Shown here in pieces: positions 48,430 to 55,876 of a stretch of DNA of 55,876 bases (position 1 is the stretch's first letter; each line of letters starts with the position of its first letter). The notes beneath the pieces were generated by a model. The model was not told the DNA's origin, did no database searches, and saw nothing but the letters and a program-made list of their open reading frames with translations. Both the position numbers and the translations under genes were made by a program. This DNA is from Patescibacteria group bacterium (GTDB lineage: Bacteria; Patescibacteriota; Minisyncoccia; Phycocordibacterales; UBA6065). The stretch covers positions 1 to 55,876 of the forward strand of contig JBBTTY010000041.1 of the NCBI GenBank assembly GCA_038063975.1, in the 5' to 3' direction.

Positions 48430-50778
48430 TTACAGTTTGTAGAGTTTTTTAATATAATCATCAAGCATTCTTTTTGTAGTAAACTTTTTCTCTACCATAG
48501 ACATAGTTTTTTTCATACGTCTAATCCACTGATGAGGTGTATTGTTTTCTCTTTTATAAAATAATGGTGTTACTTCTTTTTCTAGAAAATTATACATGGC
48601 CGAGGCCGTGTTTTCTTCGGGCAAGATCCAGCCGATGTTTTTCCATTTTACTTCCTCTATCCAGCCATCACTAATACTCATTTGAAGTGTACCGTTTAAT
48701 CCAGCTTTCATACCACTCGTGCCACAAGCTTCTTTACCTCGAAAAGGAGTGTTTAGCCAGATGTCCGCACCAGCCACTAGTTTGTGGGCTAGGGATATAG
48801 AATAGTCTGGTATATAGGCGATTTTGTTTTTCCATTTTGGATTGTTTGTCAGAGTGCGGATGCGATCCAAAGCGTTCTTCGCACTGACGTCGTTGTTGTA
48901 AACATTGCCGGAAATGATTAATTGCAGAGAATGAATTCCGAAACAAATTTTTTCCAGTCTTTCTATATCGGATATGAGTAGTTCTGGTCGTTTGTAGGCA
49001 ACAAAACGTCTGGCCCAGACAACTGTGCAAGTATTTTGATCGAGAGTAGAGCCTGTTTTGGCATTTGTGTAATCAATCAGTTCTTTGCGAAGTTTCGATT
49101 TCACCTGCCAGATTTTTTCATCGGTTAATTTTTGTCTATCATTTCCCCACTCTCTGCCAAACCATCTGTCTCTGTAAACGCCATTTGTAATAGATATGAG
49201 ACGACTTTTTGGATGAACTTTCTTTTCGAACTTTGCGTGGAGAATACTCACAGCATTCCGACGTATAGCTGTATTCAAGAGAAAATGGGTGGCAGAAAAG
49301 ACGCGCACCTCAGGATCGACACCTAGAGAGAATAATTCTTCGGCAGAAACACCGAGACTATGAAAATATGGCCCAAAATAACGCATAAAATCGCTTTCTT
49401 CTATTTTTACGCCGGCTTGAGAAAAGATAGTATGTTTTGTCGCTACTATTTTTTTGCGTATCTCTTTTACAGCCTTTAGGATATTTTTATCTTTAAAGGA
49501 AGAAGCAGAGCGAGCGATCAATTCCAGAGTGGTAAATGCGGTATGGCCTTCATTCAAATGATATAGATGTGGCGAAATATGAAGTGTTTGGAGCATTCTG
49601 GCGCTACCCACACCTAAAACTAAATCTTGTCTTACCCACGTATAATCATCCATGGCATAGATAGTTGACAAGATTTTCCGTGATTCTTCATCATTTTCTT
49701 CTATATCTGTATCTAAGAGGATAAGCCAAGTGTTTTGCCCAAAGTTTCTGGCGTAAGCGCGAGCTTTGATAGCTTTATTTTCAAAGGGAATTTCTATGAC
49801 CAGCGGCTTGCCATTTATGGTTATGAGCGAATATTTGTTTTGTTTTATGTCTTTGTTTTTATGACTGTACCATAATCCTACGAAAACCATGGGCAAAGCC
49901 CTATCATTTGCTTCATAGAGAAAATCTGCCGCCAATACTCCCAGGCCTCCGGCATAAGTCAGGGAATCGTCGTCGAGGGCGTATTCGGCTGATATAAAAG
50001 CCACAGGTTCTCTCTGGTCATATTTTATAGAACTTGCTTCTATGGTTTTTGGCGCTTGGAGAAAATCTCCCATAATTTTCTGGGTGTTTTCCGGCCCTCT
50101 AGTTTCCATCACTTTTATACCCACATTTTTTACAGGATTGTCATTACCTTCAGGAAAGAGAGCATCACCGACAAACACGACAGAATCTCTAGGCAGTTTT
50201 GTATATTCAATAATTTTTCGCAAGCCGAAAGCTTTATCAATGCCATCATTTGTCACATCGATAGAAGTGGTACCTCCGATTTTCAACTCCAAGCCTGACA
50301 GCAGTGGCGAAAGTTTTTCCACCAAAATTGTTCGTTTTTTCTGATCTGGATCCCATAAGTGCTTCAGATCGGCTGGAGTATCTTTGCCTAGAGCTGAATA
50401 AGTCATACCAGAATCTCTGTCGTCCAACAATGGTTCTAATTCTTTTTCGCTAATGGCGAGAATTTGCCTGAAAGCCCTGCGTACACGCACCTTATCTCTG
50501 CTTGCCAGTTTTTCGGCATATATTCTCTGCCAGCCTCCTCTATATACCCAGAGTTCTGCGCCACTAGTTGTGAGAATGTAGAGATTTGTCAATTCTCTCA
50601 CAGTGGCAGTCAGAGGTTTTAGAAGTTCTGATTCAAATTGTTTGAAAGACGCCCCAGATATAACTGCTACCTTTGTCTGCTTTAAAAGCTCGCATAGGAG
50701 AGATGCCGTTTCTTCCATAATTGGCGCCCTGCTTTCCGTGAGAGTATTGTCTAGGTCAAATACGATAAGTTTCGGCAT
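48430..50778 (-). CDS. HAD-IIB (PMM/Cof-like) phosphatase/mutase domain fused to alpha-glucan phosphorylase (GT35)
   Basis: N-terminal FDLDNTLT, VISGAS, GDALFPEGNDNP HAD motifs; C-terminal YAGGLGVLAADF and EACGTSGMKAGLNG (PLP Lys); start trimmed to ATG 50778 because 50779-50856 overlaps tRNA-Asn. Confidence 0.8.
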   Translation of the reverse strand: MPKLIVFDLDNTLTESRAPIMEETASLLCELLKQTKVAVISGASFKQFESELLKPLTATVRELTNLYILTTSGAELWVYRGGWQRIYAEKLASRDKVRVRRAFRQILAISEKELEPLLDDRDSGMTYSALGKDTPADLKHLWDPDQKKRTILVEKLSPLLSGLELKIGGTTSIDVTNDGIDKAFGLRKIIEYTKLPRDSVVFVGDALFPEGNDNPVKNVGIKVMETRGPENTQKIMGDFLQAPKTIEASSIKYDQREPVAFISAEYALDDDSLTYAGGLGVLAADFLYEANDRALPMVFVGLWYSHKNKDIKQNKYSLITINGKPLVIEIPFENKAIKARAYARNFGQNTWLILLDTDIEENDEESRKILSTIYAMDDYTWVRQDLVLGVGSARMLQTLHISPHLYHLNEGHTAFTTLELIARSASSFKDKNILKAVKEIRKKIVATKHTIFSQAGVKIEESDFMRYFGPYFHSLGVSAEELFSLGVDPEVRVFSATHFLLNTAIRRNAVSILHAKFEKKVHPKSRLISITNGVYRDRWFGREWGNDRQKLTDEKIWQVKSKLRKELIDYTNAKTGSTLDQNTCTVVWARRFVAYKRPELLISDIERLEKICFGIHSLQLIISGNVYNNDVSAKNALDRIRTLTNNPKWKNKIAYIPDYSISLAHKLVAGADIWLNTPFRGKEACGTSGMKAGLNGTLQMSISDGWIEEVKWKNIGWILPEENTASAMYNFLEKEVTPLFYKRENNTPHQWIRRMKKTMSMVEKKFTTKRMLDDYIKKLYKL

Positions 50779-50821
50779 GGGACCATTATATAATATGAAT
50801 CTGATTTTATCCTGAATTGTT

Positions 50822-50897
50822 TGGCTCCTCGGCCTGGACTCGAACCAGGGACCCATCCCTTAACAGGGGATCGCTCTACCAACTGAGCTACCGAGGA
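50822..50897 (-). tRNA. tRNA-Asn (anticodon GUU), CCA encoded
   Basis: Reverse complement folds as a 76-nt cloverleaf: acceptor TCCTCGG/CCGAGGA, anticodon loop CTGTTAA, T-loop TTCGAGT. Confidence 0.9.
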
Positions 50898-51619: not shown

Positions 51620-52324
51620 ATGACATTCGAAAAACAAATCATGGAAAAAATAAGAGGGAGACGGCTCCGGCCGATGCCAAAGGGTTATTTCTATGTGCGC
51701 GACGTCGTTGTCTGGCTTCTGCTCGGTGTATTTGTGACGGCTCTGTCTCTCGGTTTTGCTATGACTATGTTTATGATTCGCGGCACAGACTTTGGGCTTT
51801 TTGAAAAGCTCGGCTTGTCGAGTGGTCAGAAAATAATTTATTCCATTCCATTTTTTTGGATTGCTACATGCATCGCCTTGGCTTTAGCTGTCTTTATCAA
51901 TTTTCGAAATACTCGCAGGGGTTATCGCATGAGCACGAAACAATTTTCTCTGATAACTGTGCTCATTGCTCTGGCTTTCGGCAGTGTTTTGTACTCTCTC
52001 GATATCGCTAAATATGTAGACAAGACCGCTTCGAAAAACTTTCCTTTGTACAATTCTGTCGTGCCACTCAATATAAATAATTGGCTCGATCCAGAGCACG
52101 GTCTGCTCTCTGGCGCTGTGCGGGACAGGGAATCAGAATCTGATTTCATGCTCCGAGACGCAAATGGTATCTTGTGGCATGTAACGGGCAGAAATATTGA
52201 AGTGGAAAAAGGTTTCAAATGGGCTAGTGGTGATAGAATCAAAATTATAGGCGTACAGTCCGGACTTGATGAATTCCGCGCTATAGAAATATTGCCGTGG
52301 GAGGAGAAACCTACAAAGGAATAA
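51620..52324 (+). CDS. Polytopic membrane protein, possible non-canonical anti-sigma partner
   Basis: 16 nt downstream of the ECF sigma gene; 3-4 TM helices; no HxxxCxxC zinc anti-sigma motif. Confidence 0.4.
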   Translation: MTFEKQIMEKIRGRRLRPMPKGYFYVRDVVVWLLLGVFVTALSLGFAMTMFMIRGTDFGLFEKLGLSSGQKIIYSIPFFWIATCIALALAVFINFRNTRRGYRMSTKQFSLITVLIALAFGSVLYSLDIAKYVDKTASKNFPLYNSVVPLNINNWLDPEHGLLSGAVRDRESESDFMLRDANGILWHVTGRNIEVEKGFKWASGDRIKIIGVQSGLDEFRAIEILPWEEKPTKE

Positions 52325-52443
52325 AATCGCAAGAATAGTTGCTTGAGGAGACCTTCGGAGGACGCGAAGGCGTCCGAGAATGAGACGCCCCGCCAGCAGG
52401 CGGGGATGTCGTGCTCCGAAAGTAACTATTCTTGCGATTTTAT
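52321..52443 (+). repeat. Family-2 nested hairpin element, copy 3 (divergent)
   Basis: ATAAAATCGCAAGAATAGTT pairs with AACTATTCTTGCGATTTTAT; overlaps the stop codons of both convergent flanking genes. Confidence 0.85.
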
Positions 52444-52817
52444 TCTTTTATAGTAATCATCACACGAATGTCTAAATTCATGCGGTCGTAAAAAGAATAT
52501 GTGCCCGGACCGAAAAAAGAAAGAGTGTAACTCTCGCCCGTTCCGAATTCTCCCGATTCCAGCCTAGCATCACGCTTTGATGATCTCTCTTCGGCGATAG
52601 TGTGCCGACTTTCGTCTAGAACCATAAAAACTATCTCATCGCCTGGTCGGGCCGTAACGGAAATCGGTTCCGCCCTGTCCTCAAAGAGAAGGATTTTATG
52701 GATGGTACCTCCGCCAAAGAAAACAGAAGCGGTATTATCTCCTTCTCGACCTAACCTTTTTGTGAGAGCAAAAGTTCCCGCCAGAGCGAGCAGAAGAAAA
52801 AACCAAATTAAAACCAT
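52440..52817 (-). CDS. Secreted/membrane-anchored cupredoxin-like protein lacking Cu ligands
   Basis: Signal anchor MVLIWFFLLLALAG; PGDEIVFMVLDESRHT beta-sandwich-like pattern, no Cys; start trimmed to ATG 52817. Confidence 0.35.
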   Translation of the reverse strand: MVLIWFFLLLALAGTFALTKRLGREGDNTASVFFGGGTIHKILLFEDRAEPISVTARPGDEIVFMVLDESRHTIAEERSSKRDARLESGEFGTGESYTLSFFGPGTYSFYDRMNLDIRVMITIKE

Positions 52818-52915
52818 TTTAGTATTCACGATAGTATTGTACCATACTCGTCTATCCGAGATAACTATATAAATCAATGGTATCTCGGTAATTTTAGATT
52901 TTTTAATTTAATTAT

Positions 52916-53395
52916 CTAAATCTTGATTTTATCAATGTTTTGTAATGTTTTACCTCTGTCAATTCCGTGCCATTTTTTCCATGATAATTCGAGATGGAAG
53001 GTCTTTGTTCTGCTATCCACATAACGCAATATTAAATCATCTATTAAATCAATCAGAACTTTGGCTCCATACATACCTTTTATATGTTCCAAATATATGA
53101 TCATTTTGTTACATCCGGACATAGCTTTTTCTATGAGAGCAATACCTTGGGTGAAATTTCCAAATCTGATGCTGTGGGCTTCACCAATAGACAGAGGTAT
53201 GGTCATAGCACAATTCACAAAACCTTCTAAAAATGGATACTTAAAAGTAACTAATTTTGGCCTGATATTTTTTACAACTATCACCGAACATTCCAATGTT
53301 CTCTGATAGATATCCAAATCCCGAAAAGTTTTCACTGGTTTTTTGGGTGTAAATTTGTATTTTGAATCGTATTTTGATTGCATGTAATTTTTCAT
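52916..53395 (-). CDS. Four-helix-bundle protein (23S rRNA IVS / Avd-like family)
   Basis: FRDLDIYQRTLE..., IGEAHS and helical pattern resemble the TIGR02436-type four-helix-bundle family. Confidence 0.5.
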   Translation of the reverse strand: MKNYMQSKYDSKYKFTPKKPVKTFRDLDIYQRTLECSVIVVKNIRPKLVTFKYPFLEGFVNCAMTIPLSIGEAHSIRFGNFTQGIALIEKAMSGCNKMIIYLEHIKGMYGAKVLIDLIDDLILRYVDSRTKTFHLELSWKKWHGIDRGKTLQNIDKIKI

Positions 53396-53440
53396 TTTTA
53401 TTATGTATTTTTTTATTTAAAGGGCTCCTTCGCCCCAACA

Positions 53441-54640
53441 TCAAACAACAACTAGAGCATTTTTACGAGGTAGAGATACGACGGTGCCATCGCGATAATG
53501 TACTTTTCGCGCTCTCTTCCTCGCCTGTAATTTTTTGACAATATGAAGAGGATAAAATTCATAAAAATCTTTGTCGTCAAACCATGCACATTTGAATTCA
53601 AATAATCGTAATCCCGTGAGACGAGATAGCGCCAGAGCATACCACGTGAGCTGTTCTATAGGTTTTTCTTTGCTGGCATTCGGCTTATAATCCAAAATAT
53701 GTACCATACCATTTCTGATTTGCACAAAATCTATATGACCAGTGAGTAGTTTTGGAAATTTTTGTTCTTGTTTGTCACCTTTCATTTCTATAAGACCATC
53801 ACCCGTAATTTTGAATTTAAGAACATTTTCCATATGTTCAACATCTTCCCTCCTTATATATACAGGCACTTCCGTAGCGACAGTAACAGAATCGTTGGCT
53901 ATCATAAATCTCTGCAGAGCTTCATGCCGTGCTTTATTATCGGTTACACCACTCAAAACAAACGAGGCAATATCATTGGCAAAATTCGATTTACCCCTCA
54001 CGATCATATCCGTTTTATCGAATTTTGATCTGATTTCCGACATTCTGGAACCTTCGGCAAAATATTGATGTGGGGTTTCCGAAGAAACGGCATCCAAATA
54101 TTCCTTTAATCTACCGAATCGGCGATTTTTAAATTCTTCCATTATGAGAACCGTCTTAGCCCTGTGATACCTGAAACGATATAACTGACGATGAGCCATA
54201 GTGACGACTTCAATCATTTTCTGCGGCGAAAACATTTTTATTGCCCACGGACGCATTCTCTCAAATCTACAAAGTGGTTTATATTCTTCTACCCAAGACG
54301 ATAATGTCGCTGGTAACGGTGCTAAAAAATCTCCCATGGTTTTCGAAAATTTATCCCCCAAAATTTTACAAGTTTGTTCCAATGTCAAACCGAGATTATA
54401 ATAACTGATTCCCTCCATAATGACATTAATAGGAAACCGCTTGCCTTTTACCCTTTCGGCTGTAAAAGTTCTACCACAATTTTCTTCCTTGCAAATATAC
54501 AACTGAACAATTTCATGTTTTTTCTGTCTTATACCTCTCTTTACAAAATTTTCTGAATTACAATACGGACAAACGGTTTTGGTTGATATATCCGCTTTTG
54601 TTTTCTCTTCTTTATTTTCTTGTATTTTTTCGCTTGACAT
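53441..54640 (-). CDS. Zn-ribbon + HTH + PD-(D/E)xK (RecB/Cas4-like) nuclease-domain protein
   Basis: CPYC..x17..CKEENC IS1/InsA-like zinc ribbon, following HTH-like segment; C-terminal GHIDFV ... ILDYK ... QLTWY (D, D-x-K, QxxxY). Confidence 0.6.
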   Translation of the reverse strand: MSSEKIQENKEEKTKADISTKTVCPYCNSENFVKRGIRQKKHEIVQLYICKEENCGRTFTAERVKGKRFPINVIMEGISYYNLGLTLEQTCKILGDKFSKTMGDFLAPLPATLSSWVEEYKPLCRFERMRPWAIKMFSPQKMIEVVTMAHRQLYRFRYHRAKTVLIMEEFKNRRFGRLKEYLDAVSSETPHQYFAEGSRMSEIRSKFDKTDMIVRGKSNFANDIASFVLSGVTDNKARHEALQRFMIANDSVTVATEVPVYIRREDVEHMENVLKFKITGDGLIEMKGDKQEQKFPKLLTGHIDFVQIRNGMVHILDYKPNASKEKPIEQLTWYALALSRLTGLRLFEFKCAWFDDKDFYEFYPLHIVKKLQARKRARKVHYRDGTVVSLPRKNALVVV

Positions 54641-54705
54641 ATTTTTTTTGATTGTTAGGATATAGTTACATACGGCTTCGGCCCTCCCCGCAAGGGGTAA
54701 ATACG

Positions 54706-54737
54706 AAAAACTCAGAGCATTACTGGTCTGAGTTTTT
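54706..54737 (-). terminator. Symmetric terminator overlapping the MazF-like stop codon
   Basis: AAAAACTCAGA / TCTGAGTTTTT stem with 10-nt loop. Confidence 0.6.
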
Positions 54738-54999
54738 CTTTTATTTTTTTGAAATCCTGTTTATTTACATCACCGATTTTTTCTTTTTTTGTCATAGAAA
54801 TACCCCAAAAACTTTCGTTGTTAAACTTTTTTATAATTATCACTGGTCGGAGAAATTTTTCACCCTTGCCATCAATTTCAAAACCTATATTCGCACCAAT
54901 AGATGTAAACCAAATATCGCGTTCATGAAAAAATGGACGATTTTTCAATTCGTGAATATCACTTTTTTCTATATGCCACTTTGAATAATCTTTTTTCAT
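54712..54999 (-). CDS. PemK/MazF-like toxin family protein, apparently shortened
   Basis: FFHERDIWFTSIGANIGFEIDGKGEKFLRPVIIIKKFN matches the solo MazF-like family; about 30 residues expected after MTKKEK seem absent. Confidence 0.45.
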   Translation of the reverse strand: MKKDYSKWHIEKSDIHELKNRPFFHERDIWFTSIGANIGFEIDGKGEKFLRPVIIIKKFNNESFWGISMTKKEKIGDVNKQDFKKIKEKLRPVML

Positions 55000-55200: not shown

Positions 55201-55876
55201 TTATGGCATCAATTCTGGAATGGTTTCTGAAATTGTTTCCACCACTACAGGTTCACTCACCACCGTTGTTTCCGGCACTATTTCCGACACAGATTCAGAC
55301 GATGTTGGTGTGGATTCTGGAACGGATTCTGGAATTGTTTCTGATTCTGACACAGGTTCTGTTACTGTTTCTGGCGATGTTGGAACAGTAGGTGTAGATG
55401 TATTTTCTGGAACTATTTCCGAAACTGTACCTTGATTAGTTGAGACTGTATTTGTCGCACCACAAACACCGAGCTCCGATTGAATCACCCCATTTGCCAC
55501 ATACATACATGTCGGTGCTCCGGTCTGACGATCATATATAGTTATACCGCTCGCCGACAAATTATCCAATGAACCGACGGTCAATGTATTCACCACTACG
55601 GTACGTGCTGTAATCGAATCGGCTATGACGGCGACGAATCTAGCTAGACCATTTTCTATTGTACTCCCAAGATTACCAAAGAAAGAAATGATGCTTGCCC
55701 CCATATCATTTGACCATGTGACTTGCACTGTGCTCGTGCCTGATGTCGTGTTTCCCGAACTATCAATAGTTGAAACAGAAGTTGAAGCAAATGAGACTAG
55801 TCTGGCTTCCAATTCAGCTAATTTCGTTTCTGTGCTACGAACCGCTTCTGTCGTACTAGCCAAAGTGCCAGATATG
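55201..55876 (-). CDS. Surface/secreted protein with acidic Ser/Thr/Pro/Glu-rich C-terminal repeats (5' end outside window)
   Basis: Frame open to window edge; C-terminus is degenerate E-[ST]-[IV]-P-E repeats; conserved-looking ITIYDRQTGAPTCMYVANGVI segment. Confidence 0.6.
   Translation of the reverse strand, partial: ISGTLASTTEAVRSTETKLAELEARLVSFASTSVSTIDSSGNTTSGTSTVQVTWSNDMGASIISFFGNLGSTIENGLARFVAVIADSITARTVVVNTLTVGSLDNLSASGITIYDRQTGAPTCMYVANGVIQSELGVCGATNTVSTNQGTVSEIVPENTSTPTVPTSPETVTEPVSESETIPESVPESTPTSSESVSEIVPETTVVSEPVVVETISETIPELMP

Follow-up and report, generated by a model that had tools for sequence, protein, structure and literature searches.

The question raised by this locus is what an apparently DNA-cutting enzyme does just past the stop codon of a giant tail-fibre-like gene. 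The window, i.e. the whole stretch of 55,876 bp analysed here (contig JBBTTY010000041.1 of a Patescibacteria group bacterium), contains at 53441..54640 on the minus strand an intact ORF of 399 aa, hereafter T, coding for a protein with a zinc ribbon, a helix-turn-helix (HTH) module and a RecB-like PD-(D/E)xK nuclease domain. A first-pass annotation, made from the sequence alone, had regarded T as an orphan and had suggested a homing or selfish nuclease, a stand-alone defence effector or a non-canonical transposase. The partner gene and the giant host gene had escaped it, as had the size and conservation of the T family.

The nuclease T and its partner P

The zinc ribbon (54461..54571, minus strand, aa 24-60) is formed by C24, C27, C50 and C55, located in the motifs CPYC (aa 24-27) and CKEENC (aa 50-55), with the spacer between the two cysteine pairs being 22 residues long and not 17 as originally counted. 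It matches the NCBIfam model NF050000 (IS1_IS1595_Zn) with 31 bits at a curated cut-off of 28; the IS1 transposase N-terminal domain gives a weak match to aa 24-91, the IS1 equivalog model scores 18 bits at a cut-off of 100, and no DDE domain was found in T in the family profile searches. Downstream of the ribbon there are an HTH-like helical module (54284..54430, minus strand, aa 71-119), for which the support is moderate only, with the motif LGLTLEQTCKILG at aa 83-95, and the nuclease domain (53546..54268, minus strand, aa 125-365) with the motifs GHIDFV (aa 301-306), ILDYK (aa 315-319) and QLTWY (aa 330-334). Pfam PDDEXK_1 (PF12705) covers aa 281-341 of T with 21.8 bits at a cut-off of 22, which is passed by many T relatives.

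The putative catalytic residues are E257, H302, D304, D317, K319, Q330 and Y334. All of them are invariant or nearly so in the alignments; for those other than E257, and for the four ribbon cysteines, this holds down to identities of about 30%, with C27, C50 and C55 being invariant and C24 invariant or nearly so in the alignments A1-A3. The only cysteines outside the ribbon are those at positions 91, 124 and 351, and the Cas4-type Fe-S cysteines are absent from T.

An AF2 model of T with a pLDDT of 87.4 was built from a 77-sequence alignment including distant relatives, superseding an earlier poor one (pLDDT 62.7) based on 26 close homologs. In the model, the ribbon has beta strands at aa 32-40, 43-50 and 58-60, and the HTH-like module, which gives small Foldseek matches of the HTH/PadR/NrdR type, consists of helices at aa 71-82, 87-102 and 110-119. 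The approximately 200 middle residues previously taken to be devoid of motifs turned out to be mostly the N-terminal part of the nuclease fold, modelled with high confidence. The residues expected of RecB/Cas4-like nucleases are on the expected elements: motif II D304 on strand 298-309, motif III D317-x-K319 with D317 at the end of strand 312-318 and K319 adjacent to it, and Q330-x3-Y334 on helix 328-342. Foldseek matched the model to nucleases of the RecB, AddA, Cas4 and MGME1 types, with probabilities up to 0.93 for RecB/AddA nuclease domains and Cas4 and E-values of only 7e-3 to 0.1, while a PDB sequence search with T returned nothing below E = 0.3. A PD-(D/E)xK fold is what the structure prediction, proposed earlier as a check, returned, matching RecB/AddA/Cas4-type nucleases.

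T, a basic protein, consists of an IS1-type zinc ribbon, an HTH-like module and a RecB/Cas4-like PD-(D/E)xK domain with invariant catalytic residues; the original domain reading, including the lack of Fe-S cysteines, is borne out by NF050000, the alignments and AF2/Foldseek. The ribbon and the HTH suggest that T may bind DNA in a sequence-specific manner.

The partner gene P (52916..53395, minus strand) is located 45 nt downstream of T and codes for a basic protein of 159 aa with a pI of 9.6. In 72 of 82 loci it directly follows T on the same strand, the median distance between the two genes being about 9 nt and 15 pairs overlapping; being co-directional and tightly linked in nearly all genomes, T and P constitute an operon. 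Judging by profile matches, P is a predicted divergent four-helix-bundle protein of the 23S_rRNA_IVP/Avd family, the matches being partial: PF05635 is matched by 19 of 35 P-family members in a member-wise Pfam scan (best E 7e-6) and TIGR02436 by four, the PRK12275 and TIGR02436 matches are weak, and the window copy of P has no Pfam match. The partner gene at one distant T locus carries a precomputed PF05635 annotation, and a PDB profile search with the P family gave no match.

Giant host genes and their inteins

T is not an orphan, as 2,925 homologs were found at E ≤ 1e-3 (2,092 clusters at 50% identity; 217 species genomes). The closest 120 have identities of 65-86% and are spread across Patescibacteria lineages. 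The conservation of T (72.5% identity) is on a par with that of GAPDH (69.1%), its divergence follows that of the neighbouring genes (identity correlation r about 0.6), dS is saturated and dN low, and only two of 82 copies look disrupted; across the sampled lineages of Patescibacteria, T experiences strong purifying selection. Each genome among the 80 best loci/assemblies carries a single copy. Several homologs are named "transposase-like protein" by JGI. Distant relatives are found in integrative/conjugative elements, beside integrases, those outside Patescibacteria reside in mobile elements devoid of giant genes, and one distant relative lies downstream of an RHS toxin gene. The T gene was not found in RNA-seq runs, and a literature search yielded no paper describing the T family or inteins in giant genes of Patescibacteria.

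Checking the gene neighbourhood of the homologs, as had been proposed, revealed a strongly conserved context. T and P are tied to giant Peptidase_S74 tail-fibre-like genes of Patescibacteria, which they almost always adjoin, and the linkage also holds in relatives about 50% identical to T. A co-directional ORF of at least 500 aa is located upstream of T in 28 of the 35 loci whose flanks are long enough. The giant genes contain GNVGIGTT repeats and several intein copies per gene, and assemblies very often end inside them, for which repeats and strain mixtures may be the sole cause. In the window, the 3' end of such a gene occupies 55201..55876 on the minus strand and runs off the window; on the source contig the gene codes for at least 1165 aa and, further upstream, contains a contiguous intein into which NYN is inserted (domains of L001:3-3500: Peptidase_S74, Intein_splicing and NYN). 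Residues 813-944 of its product share 58% identity with the C-extein protein encoded at the nested locus L076. The window copies of T and P are stand-alone genes just past the stop codon of the giant gene, which is contiguous there, and lie outside any intron or intein. Most genomes likewise have T as a separate gene past the stop codon.

Between the giant gene and T there is a shortened PemK/MazF-like ORF of 95 aa (54712..54999, minus strand), a recurrent interloper at these loci, which is 55% identical to a 134-aa homolog in L003 and 40-59% identical to about 20 others. The homolog in L085 is a Pfam PemK_toxin, and the window ORF itself has no Pfam match. It ends in a terminator-like hairpin 5' of the T module (54705..54738, minus strand; inverted repeat I7 with 15-nt arms, 93% complementary), and the fold of 54641-54745 has a z-score of -4.0. 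A further two hairpins, both small, GC-rich and with tetraloops (GGC-CGAA-GCC and CCCC-TTGC-GGGG as read on the coding strand; 54674..54697, minus strand), are located 23-56 nt upstream of the ATG of T. The hairpin motif GGCCGAAGCC occurs once in the window with 0.04 occurrences expected; about 15 loci, nested as well as non-nested, have it 20-300 nt upstream of T on the same strand. We rejected it as a T-specific element, since in L008 and L015 it is also found behind PemK-like genes that do not lie beside T; its position 3' of these genes suggests that it may be a shared terminator or a REP-like element. Contig depth is raised at 54660-54701, with loose ends. A junction skipping 52416-54770 in the DNA-run contigs was rejected as an empty-site allele (21-nt anchor; 62-nt match with 7 mismatches), and Rfam gave no match at E ≤ 1 for 52250-54800.

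The second position of T and P is inside the same host gene. In 20 of 80 related genome loci they are located within a split intein, between its blocks B and F, i.e. where a homing endonuclease is canonically inserted; 17 of these loci have both intein halves flanking T and P, and three have one half at the contig edge. The metagenome loci with T and P between blocks B and F number at least 7, probably 19. The intein is of class 1, with its splicing residues intact (C1, T-x-x-H-P-[YF]-L, AHN|T). The nested giant ORFs end in Peptidase_S74 and the N-terminal part of the intein, and the ORF 3' of P opens with the C-terminal part, as identified with Pfam; the 3' boundary of the module supplies the promoter/ATG for the downstream half-gene. 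The nested host gene is broken into an N-extein/Int-N gene and an Int-C/C-extein gene, i.e. it is a "fractured gene". In five loci T is fused in frame to Int-N. One T homolog, P0084, is named "Hint domain-containing protein". Elsewhere the same intein is empty, degenerate or occupied by NYN: the 91 intein copies include 30 contiguous ones, 14 contiguous ones with NYN, 7 split by T and P, 12 with T and P beside the C-half, and three mini-inteins. Mapped on the T tree, the positions of T and P have switched at least about 11 times.

Possible roles of T and P

The intein endonuclease slot and the giant-gene context point to a new kind of homing-type endonuclease and thus favour the first of the three roles originally suggested. 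We hold with moderate confidence that T is a site-specific homing-type endonuclease with P as a cofactor or inhibitor, the two representing a novel form of the "fractured gene" arrangement. The zinc ribbon together with the HTH would recognise a long DNA site in alleles lacking T and P, the nuclease domain would cut this site with Mg2+, and repair by recombination from a T-bearing copy would copy T and P and co-convert the flanks. Such copying would maintain T and P and possibly promote exchange in the giant gene. P, in complex with T, could be a nucleic-acid-binding cofactor like Avd in diversity-generating retroelements (DGRs), or an inhibitor protecting the resident genome, and the host protein would be restored by trans-splicing of the split intein. 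T and P have moved repeatedly between the intein slot and the position past the stop codon, the window representing the second state.

Members of the family occupy the endonuclease slot, with the window copy being the free-standing form, and the intein exists in empty, degenerate, NYN-bearing and T+P-bearing states. T changes its position, but is rarely degenerate and looks vertically inherited. Several observations do not fit homing well. The distribution of T looks vertical and ancient rather than sporadic, while classical homing cycles are expected to lead to frequent decay after fixation. To our knowledge, homing endonucleases normally require no partner protein. According to Foldseek, the fold of T is nearest to RecB/Cas4-type exo- and endonucleases and not to any known homing endonuclease, and searches of IMG/VR viral contigs, PLSDB plasmids and INPHARED phages yielded no relatives, in contrast to the fractured genes, which are phage-borne.

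The atypically deep vertical conservation leaves room for a domesticated role resembling that of yeast HO, which we consider unlikely but the best of the alternatives. T and P would then originate from an intein-borne or free-standing homing endonuclease and be retained by the host for cutting the giant adhesin/tail-fibre-like gene, or DNA adjacent to it, in a programmed manner, so that its repeats or alleles recombine and the cell surface varies. The GAPDH-level conservation with broadly vertical divergence, the constant linkage to giant genes across Patescibacteria and in the relatives about 50% identical to T, the repeats and multiple inteins of these genes, the frequent assembly breaks within them and a dedicated partner, which would suit a regulated system, are all consistent with it. 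However, silent cassettes, recombination sites or variant junctions were not detected, the contig breaks may reflect just repeats or strain mixtures, and the relatives outside Patescibacteria are in mobile elements without giant genes. In its full form, by analogy with HO, this explanation would make T and P a domesticated two-protein system of episymbiotic Patescibacteria, with T guided to programmed breaks by its ribbon/HTH and P acting as an Avd-like controller, which we likewise find rather improbable; a T and P pair domesticated to drive surface variation would account for a "selfish-looking" gene being as conserved as GAPDH.

Still less probable is a housekeeping nuclease of Paceibacteria engaged in repair or recombination, e.g. 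processing DNA ends in place of RecBCD/AddAB, with its position at the giant gene being mere synteny. The RecB/AddA/Cas4/MGME1-like fold, the single copy in the 80 best loci, the very strong purifying selection and the basic nature of T agree with such a role, but an enzyme of this kind would not be expected inside the endonuclease slot of an intein in a quarter of the related loci, in some of them fused to Int-N, or to switch position repeatedly, nor would its relatives be expected next to the integrases of mobile elements; the combination of zinc ribbon and HTH also suggests sequence-specific binding.

The remaining three explanations appear very improbable. A polymorphic-toxin-like module, in which a Hint domain at the end of the giant surface protein would free T as a nuclease toxin with P as its immunity protein, would agree with the five in-frame Hint-N::T fusions, P lying tightly 3' of T or overlapping it, the distant relative downstream of an RHS toxin gene and a weak PT-HINT match in the giant genes, but the Hint forms a complete splicing intein, the C-half of which, containing HN|T, comes after P, so that T lies inside and not after it, and T is highly conserved and not polymorphic, usually has its own start with upstream hairpins, and in most genomes is a separate gene past the stop codon.

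A stand-alone defence effector or toxin-antitoxin pair, with T cleaving invading DNA and P regulating it, could be read from a weak PADLOC match to an Argonaute-associated Cas4-like nuclease (1.4e-5), from the small neighbouring genes including PemK-like toxins, AbiEii and DUF3800, and from the low GC content, which the first-pass annotation had noticed correctly (0.35 at 53-55 kb vs about 0.37-0.45 elsewhere in the window). This suggestion of the annotation found no support, since the PADLOC match is to a generic domain, neither Argonaute nor other PADLOC system partners are found near T, there is no conserved defence-island content around T and P, and deep vertical conservation with intein nesting is not defence-like.

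A non-canonical transposase mobilising the T and P cassette with its IS1-type DNA-binding module and PD-(D/E)xK catalytic domain was the third role suggested; the IS1/IS1595 zinc-ribbon match above the cut-off, the JGI naming, the differing cassette position between lineages and a weak 30-nt inverted pair (52400-52429 / 54662-54691) are outweighed by the single copy per genome, the moves confined to one locus, a divergence tracking that of the neighbouring genes, the absence of a DDE domain and the lack of conserved terminal inverted repeats or target duplications. The inverted pair was rejected as IS ends, being only 70% complementary, and its similarity flanking 52430-54661 is probably due to chance or REP-like.

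If the preferred reading is correct and T is an active site-specific endonuclease, it would represent a new homing-endonuclease family with a RecB-like core, an IS1-type zinc ribbon and an obligatory four-helix-bundle partner; the "fractured gene" arrangement would no longer be confined to phage enzymes but would include genes for giant surface proteins in cellular CPR bacteria, and a part of the very widespread and unexplained 23S_rRNA_IVP family would obtain its first functional context outside DGRs. The T loci also provide a natural set of split inteins which, judging by their residues (Cys1 / Thr+1), are apparently functional. They raise the question of why the selfish-looking T and P are kept under strong purifying selection across the sampled Patescibacteria lineages, and the reason may bear on how episymbionts vary or maintain giant attachment proteins.

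Comparison with known systems

Several known systems share single features with T and P. The fold of T and its motifs II (hhhD), III (D-x-K) and Q-x3-Y are those of RecB, AddA-AddB, Cas4 and MGME1, which also rank first among the Foldseek matches, but T has no helicase and no CRISPR context and possesses an N-terminal zinc ribbon and HTH; with neither Fe-S cysteines nor a CRISPR array or cas genes it is not Cas4 proper. As the first-pass annotation had noted, no DDE transposase, CRISPR array or methyltransferase is present near T, and no cas genes were found there either. T shares with the N-terminal module of IS1 InsA/IS1595 a four-Cys ribbon followed by helices, but differs from these elements in lacking a DDE transposase domain, IS ends and multiple copies. 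It differs from polymorphic toxins with PT-HINT in being located between Hint halves and in being conserved rather than variable, and the generic Cas4-like match with no partner genes does not make it a member of a PADLOC system.

I-Ssp6803I, a small tetramer whose gene lies in a group I intron and which has no zinc ribbon, exemplifies that the PD-(D/E)xK fold can serve as a homing endonuclease; no structure of this type was among the top 50 Foldseek matches of the T model. Yeast HO derives from an intein/homing nuclease, recognises DNA with a zinc-binding module and is maintained by selection for a host function. It resembles T in the proposed intein/homing origin, the zinc-binding module and the selection, and differs in being a LAGLIDADG enzyme of a eukaryote. 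P resembles the Avd/23S rRNA-intervening-sequence proteins (PF05635, TIGR02436) in being small, basic and encoded beside a nucleic-acid enzyme which it presumably binds, but is very divergent, and there is no reverse transcriptase or template/variable repeat among its annotated neighbours.

The closest counterparts are the fractured genes, in which a free-standing homing-endonuclease gene separates the two halves of a split intein (Dassa et al. 2009, PMC2677866), whose endonucleases belong to the Vsr-like/EDxHD family, e.g. I-Bth0305I (PMC3239194). Their architecture, in which a nuclease gene stands between an Int-N gene and an Int-C gene, is that of the related loci and not that of the window. 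In both kinds of loci a nuclease gene that is expressed independently and has hairpins upstream of its ORF interrupts the intein between blocks B and F, the 3' end of the insert provides the beginning of the half-gene downstream of it (as modelled by Dassa et al., PMC2677866), and the nuclease also occurs stand-alone and, in some loci, in frame. The differences are that the nuclease is Vsr-like in the fractured genes and a RecB-like PD-(D/E)xK enzyme with an IS1-type zinc ribbon in the T loci, that the latter nearly always include a second gene coding for a predicted four-helix bundle, and that the host gene codes for a phage DNA-metabolism enzyme in the former and for a giant surface/tail-fibre-like protein of cellular Patescibacteria in the latter, where the nuclease family is deeply conserved and the window copy lies outside any intein.

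The nuclease T and its partner P

The nuclease gene of the window, hereafter T, is an intact ORF coding for 399 aa (53441..54640, minus strand) and lies in a patch with a GC content of 0.35, as compared to about 0.37-0.45 elsewhere in the window. The motifs named in the first-pass annotation were found at their places, except that the spacer between the Cys pairs comprises 22 residues and not 17. The NCBIfam model of the IS1/IS1595 zinc-binding domain matches aa 24-61 with 31 bits (curated cut-off 28), Pfam PDDEXK_1 reaches 21.8 bits at aa 281-341 (cut-off 22), PADLOC returned a generic Cas4-like nuclease match and nothing more, and a PDB sequence search gave no match. The architecture is retained in homologs down to ~30% identity, with the four Cys, W116, H159, K162, D250, E257, H302, D304, Q307, D317, K319, Q330 and Y334 being invariant or nearly so.

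The first structural model, for which close homologs alone were used, had poor confidence (pLDDT 62.7); the one obtained from a 77-sequence alignment including distant relatives has a pLDDT of 87.4 and a pTM of 0.79. It contains a three-stranded ribbon (aa 32-60), a helical HTH-like module (aa 71-119) and a single large α/β domain (about aa 125 to 365), where D304 is located on strand 298-309, D317 at the end of strand 312-318 with K319 adjacent, and Q330 and Y334 on the next helix. Foldseek matches in the PDB are the RecB and AddA nuclease domains, Cas4 (SSO0001, Pcal_0546), MGME1 and HincII (probability up to 0.93, E-values from 7e-3 to 0.1), and those among viral models are phage PD-(D/E)xK / RecB-family exonucleases (best E 2.8e-4); known homing-endonuclease structures are absent from the matches. 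The fold model and the Foldseek matches, together with the profile matches, show the initial assignment of a zinc ribbon, an HTH-like segment and a RecB-like nuclease core to be right. The middle part, initially considered motif-less, is predicted by the model to consist largely of the N-terminal portion of that nuclease fold.

ORF calling and clustering in 82 T loci revealed a protein of ~156 aa, designated P, which 72 of them encode directly after T and in the same orientation (median gap about 9 nt, 15 overlaps). In the window, P occupies 52916..53395 on the minus strand, as T does, starts 45 nt past the T stop codon and is basic (pI 9.6). This copy has no direct Pfam match; PF05635 (23S_rRNA_IVP, a four-helix-bundle family including DGR Avd) is matched by 19 of 35 P family members with the best E of 7e-6, TIGR02436 "four helix bundle protein" is matched by four, and PF05635 is also the precomputed annotation of the partner at a locus whose T homolog has only ~50% identity.

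The giant host gene and its intein

A co-directional large ORF of up to 3,052 aa is almost always present upstream of T (28 of the 35 loci whose flank is 3 kb or longer), and many contigs end inside it. According to Pfam, these giant ORFs carry Peptidase_S74, a tail-spike/fibre chaperone domain, near the C-terminus, their final 60-70 residues match the N-terminal part of an intein splicing domain, and the ORF after P begins with the C-terminal intein part followed by Ig-like surface domains. The class-1 intein blocks are canonical, with "...Q|CVTGDTRLR..." and "TTANHPYL" ending the giant ORF and "VYDIEVEGTHNFVGN.IFAHN|T" at the beginning of the ORF downstream of P, and the splice residues are kept in all loci but one. 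When HMMs of both intein halves were run on six-frame translations of the T loci, T and P were found flanked by both halves (nested) in 17 loci; in 3 further loci a single half was detected, at the edge of a contig. Five loci (L017, L018, L026, L030, L040) possess in-frame fusions of the N-terminal half to T, one of which is the database protein P0084, named "Hint domain-containing protein".

The same search detected no intein halves anywhere in the window. On its source contig the homologous intein is contiguous, lies ~3 kb upstream in the same giant gene, past the window end, and contains an in-frame NYN domain (PIN-like nuclease) in the endonuclease slot (L001:216-1274). In the window lineage, the portion of the giant ORF that precedes T shares homology with the C-extein proteins found at nested loci (58% identity in the case of L076), so T and P reside either in the intein slot or just past the stop codon of one host gene. 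In a neighbour-joining tree of T, nested loci form about nine groups interleaved with non-nested ones, requiring by parsimony at least about 11 changes of position, a rough count, given that some of the tips come from short contigs. Within the window, a 30-nt tandem repeat (55313-55373, 2 copies, 77% match) falls in the acidic Pro/Thr/Ser/Glu-rich tail of the giant gene; comparable low-complexity tails are found at the ends of the giant ORFs at other non-nested loci.

Probing metagenome contigs with the intein C-half gave 91 classified copies, of which 30 are contiguous with neither T nor NYN, 14 are contiguous with an in-frame NYN and 7 are split by T and P, one of these additionally having NYN. 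In 12 more, T and P are immediately upstream of the C-half on contigs too short for the N-half, and the other 28, which include copies that could not be assessed, are split without T (4) or have no N-half found (24). Inteins containing T are without exception split, and P accompanies T in all of them. Inserts other than NYN are 2-46 aa long in three mini-inteins and otherwise heterogeneous, degenerate-looking and 100-277 aa long. Besides the source contig of the window, L046 and the 14 metagenome loci (e.g. L122, L124, L133, L149) have contiguous inteins with NYN in frame, a candidate for an unusual intein endonuclease, and at L008 an NYN ORF, T and P share one split intein. Single giant tail-fibre-like genes harbor two to four intein copies (metagenome loci L122, L133, L149), which fits insertion before the repeated "GNVGIGTT" motif of these genes, where the copies apparently reside.

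Hairpins and neighboring genes

Two GC-rich tetraloop hairpins are located between 23 and 56 nt upstream of the T ATG, preceded by a terminator-like hairpin. The element GGCCGAAGCC is found immediately upstream of T on the same strand in about 15 loci, both nested and non-nested. Since it also occurs after PemK-like genes distant from T, and groundwater assemblies show elevated contig depth and numerous loose ends over the hairpin segment, the segment may represent a shared terminator or an REP-like element and not a signal specific to T. Between the convergent ORFs 51620..52324(+) and 52440..52877(-), a very stable 149-nt hairpin is found (52308-52456, -85 kcal/mol, z = -13), which has an AT-rich stem of ~32 bp, a branched, GC-rich tip bearing tetraloops and no match in Rfam. 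Its GC-rich core (52349-52415) has elevated depth in groundwater assemblies and is therefore repeated elsewhere, and the hairpin element upstream of T recurs in inverted orientation, with a 70% match, at 52400-52429.

At 54712-54999 (-), a 95-aa ORF encodes a shortened version of a PemK/MazF-like protein. Members of this family, normally 127-160 aa long, recur between the giant gene and T in about 20 loci, and no antitoxin is obvious; the same gap repeatedly contains genes for classic four-helix-bundle, IS200/RAYT-like, Bro-N-like and GIY-YIG proteins. Further away, the longest-ORF call at 48430-50856 (-), an 808-aa HAD-phosphatase/alpha-glucan-phosphorylase fusion, begins inside a tRNA-Asn (50822-50897, minus strand), its first residues MGPWFESRPRSQ being translated tRNA, so the true start has to lie downstream of this point; on the source contigs, gene callers predict 762-782 aa.

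Evolution and possible role of T and P

Contrary to the initial supposition, T is not an orphan: there are 2,925 homologs in the protein database (E <= 1e-3), the best 120 being 65-86% identical and coming from Patescibacteria labelled Kaiserbacteria, Moranbacteria, Minisyncoccota and others. An exhaustive profile search yielded 2,092 clusters at 50% identity (280 at E <= 1e-30), a scan limited to one genome for each species detected homologs in 217 genomes, and the 80 best loci belong to 80 different assemblies. Over the same locus pairs, identity is 72.5% for T vs 69.1% for GAPDH (r = 0.61) and 67% for T vs 57% for P (r = 0.67). Synonymous sites of T are saturated even against the 86%-identical relative, its dN is 0.08-0.28, omega of P is about 0.03, and only 2 of 82 T copies look disrupted. 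These sequence comparisons show prolonged purifying selection, with descent that looks broadly vertical and no recent spread, and this pattern is the chief misfit with a simple selfish element.

Relatives ~40-55% identical in other bacteria are found in mobile contexts, adjoining large serine recombinases with TraG/VirB4-like, relaxase, Prim-Pol and methyltransferase genes, or a tyrosine integrase and ParA, or lying among small ORFs with a DnaG-like primase; others neighbor an RHS toxin or a 9,492-aa ORF. No relatives were found in IMG/VR, INPHARED phages or PLSDB plasmids. At L083 and L094, relatives ~40-50% identical are convergent to a large serine recombinase at the apparent edge of integrative/conjugative elements with HTH, Prim-Pol or Dam methylase, VirB4/TraG-like and relaxase genes, a placement suggestive of a role at the boundaries of mobile elements in bacteria other than Patescibacteria. 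The ORF annotated as 9,492 aa (L085:9194-17065) is convergent to the T relative and adjoins DUF2341/LamG giant proteins, a PemK toxin and a DUF3800 gene.

The best-supported reading, to which we give an about even chance, is that T is a homing-type, site-specific PD-(D/E)xK endonuclease with a four-helix-bundle cofactor or inhibitor, in which case T of the window would be a free-standing form adjoining the giant host gene. Because T is deeply conserved, other readings retain some weight: it is conceivable, though rather improbable, that T and P are domesticated and contribute, in an HO-like manner, to the recombination of the giant gene, and less probable still that T is a housekeeping nuclease. 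A toxin-immunity pair, a defence system and a transposase are all unlikely. The neighborhood holds no DDE domain, CRISPR array or methyltransferase, as the first-pass annotation had noted.

The literature search found no paper describing the T family. Among known systems, the split-intein loci have the same arrangement as the fractured genes of Dassa et al. (2009, PMC2677866). That model foresees both in-frame and stand-alone forms of the endonuclease, hairpins upstream of its ORF and an insert supplying the start codon of the downstream half, all of which are displayed by the loci described here; T and P would represent a new form of the fractured-gene and free-standing homing-endonuclease theme.
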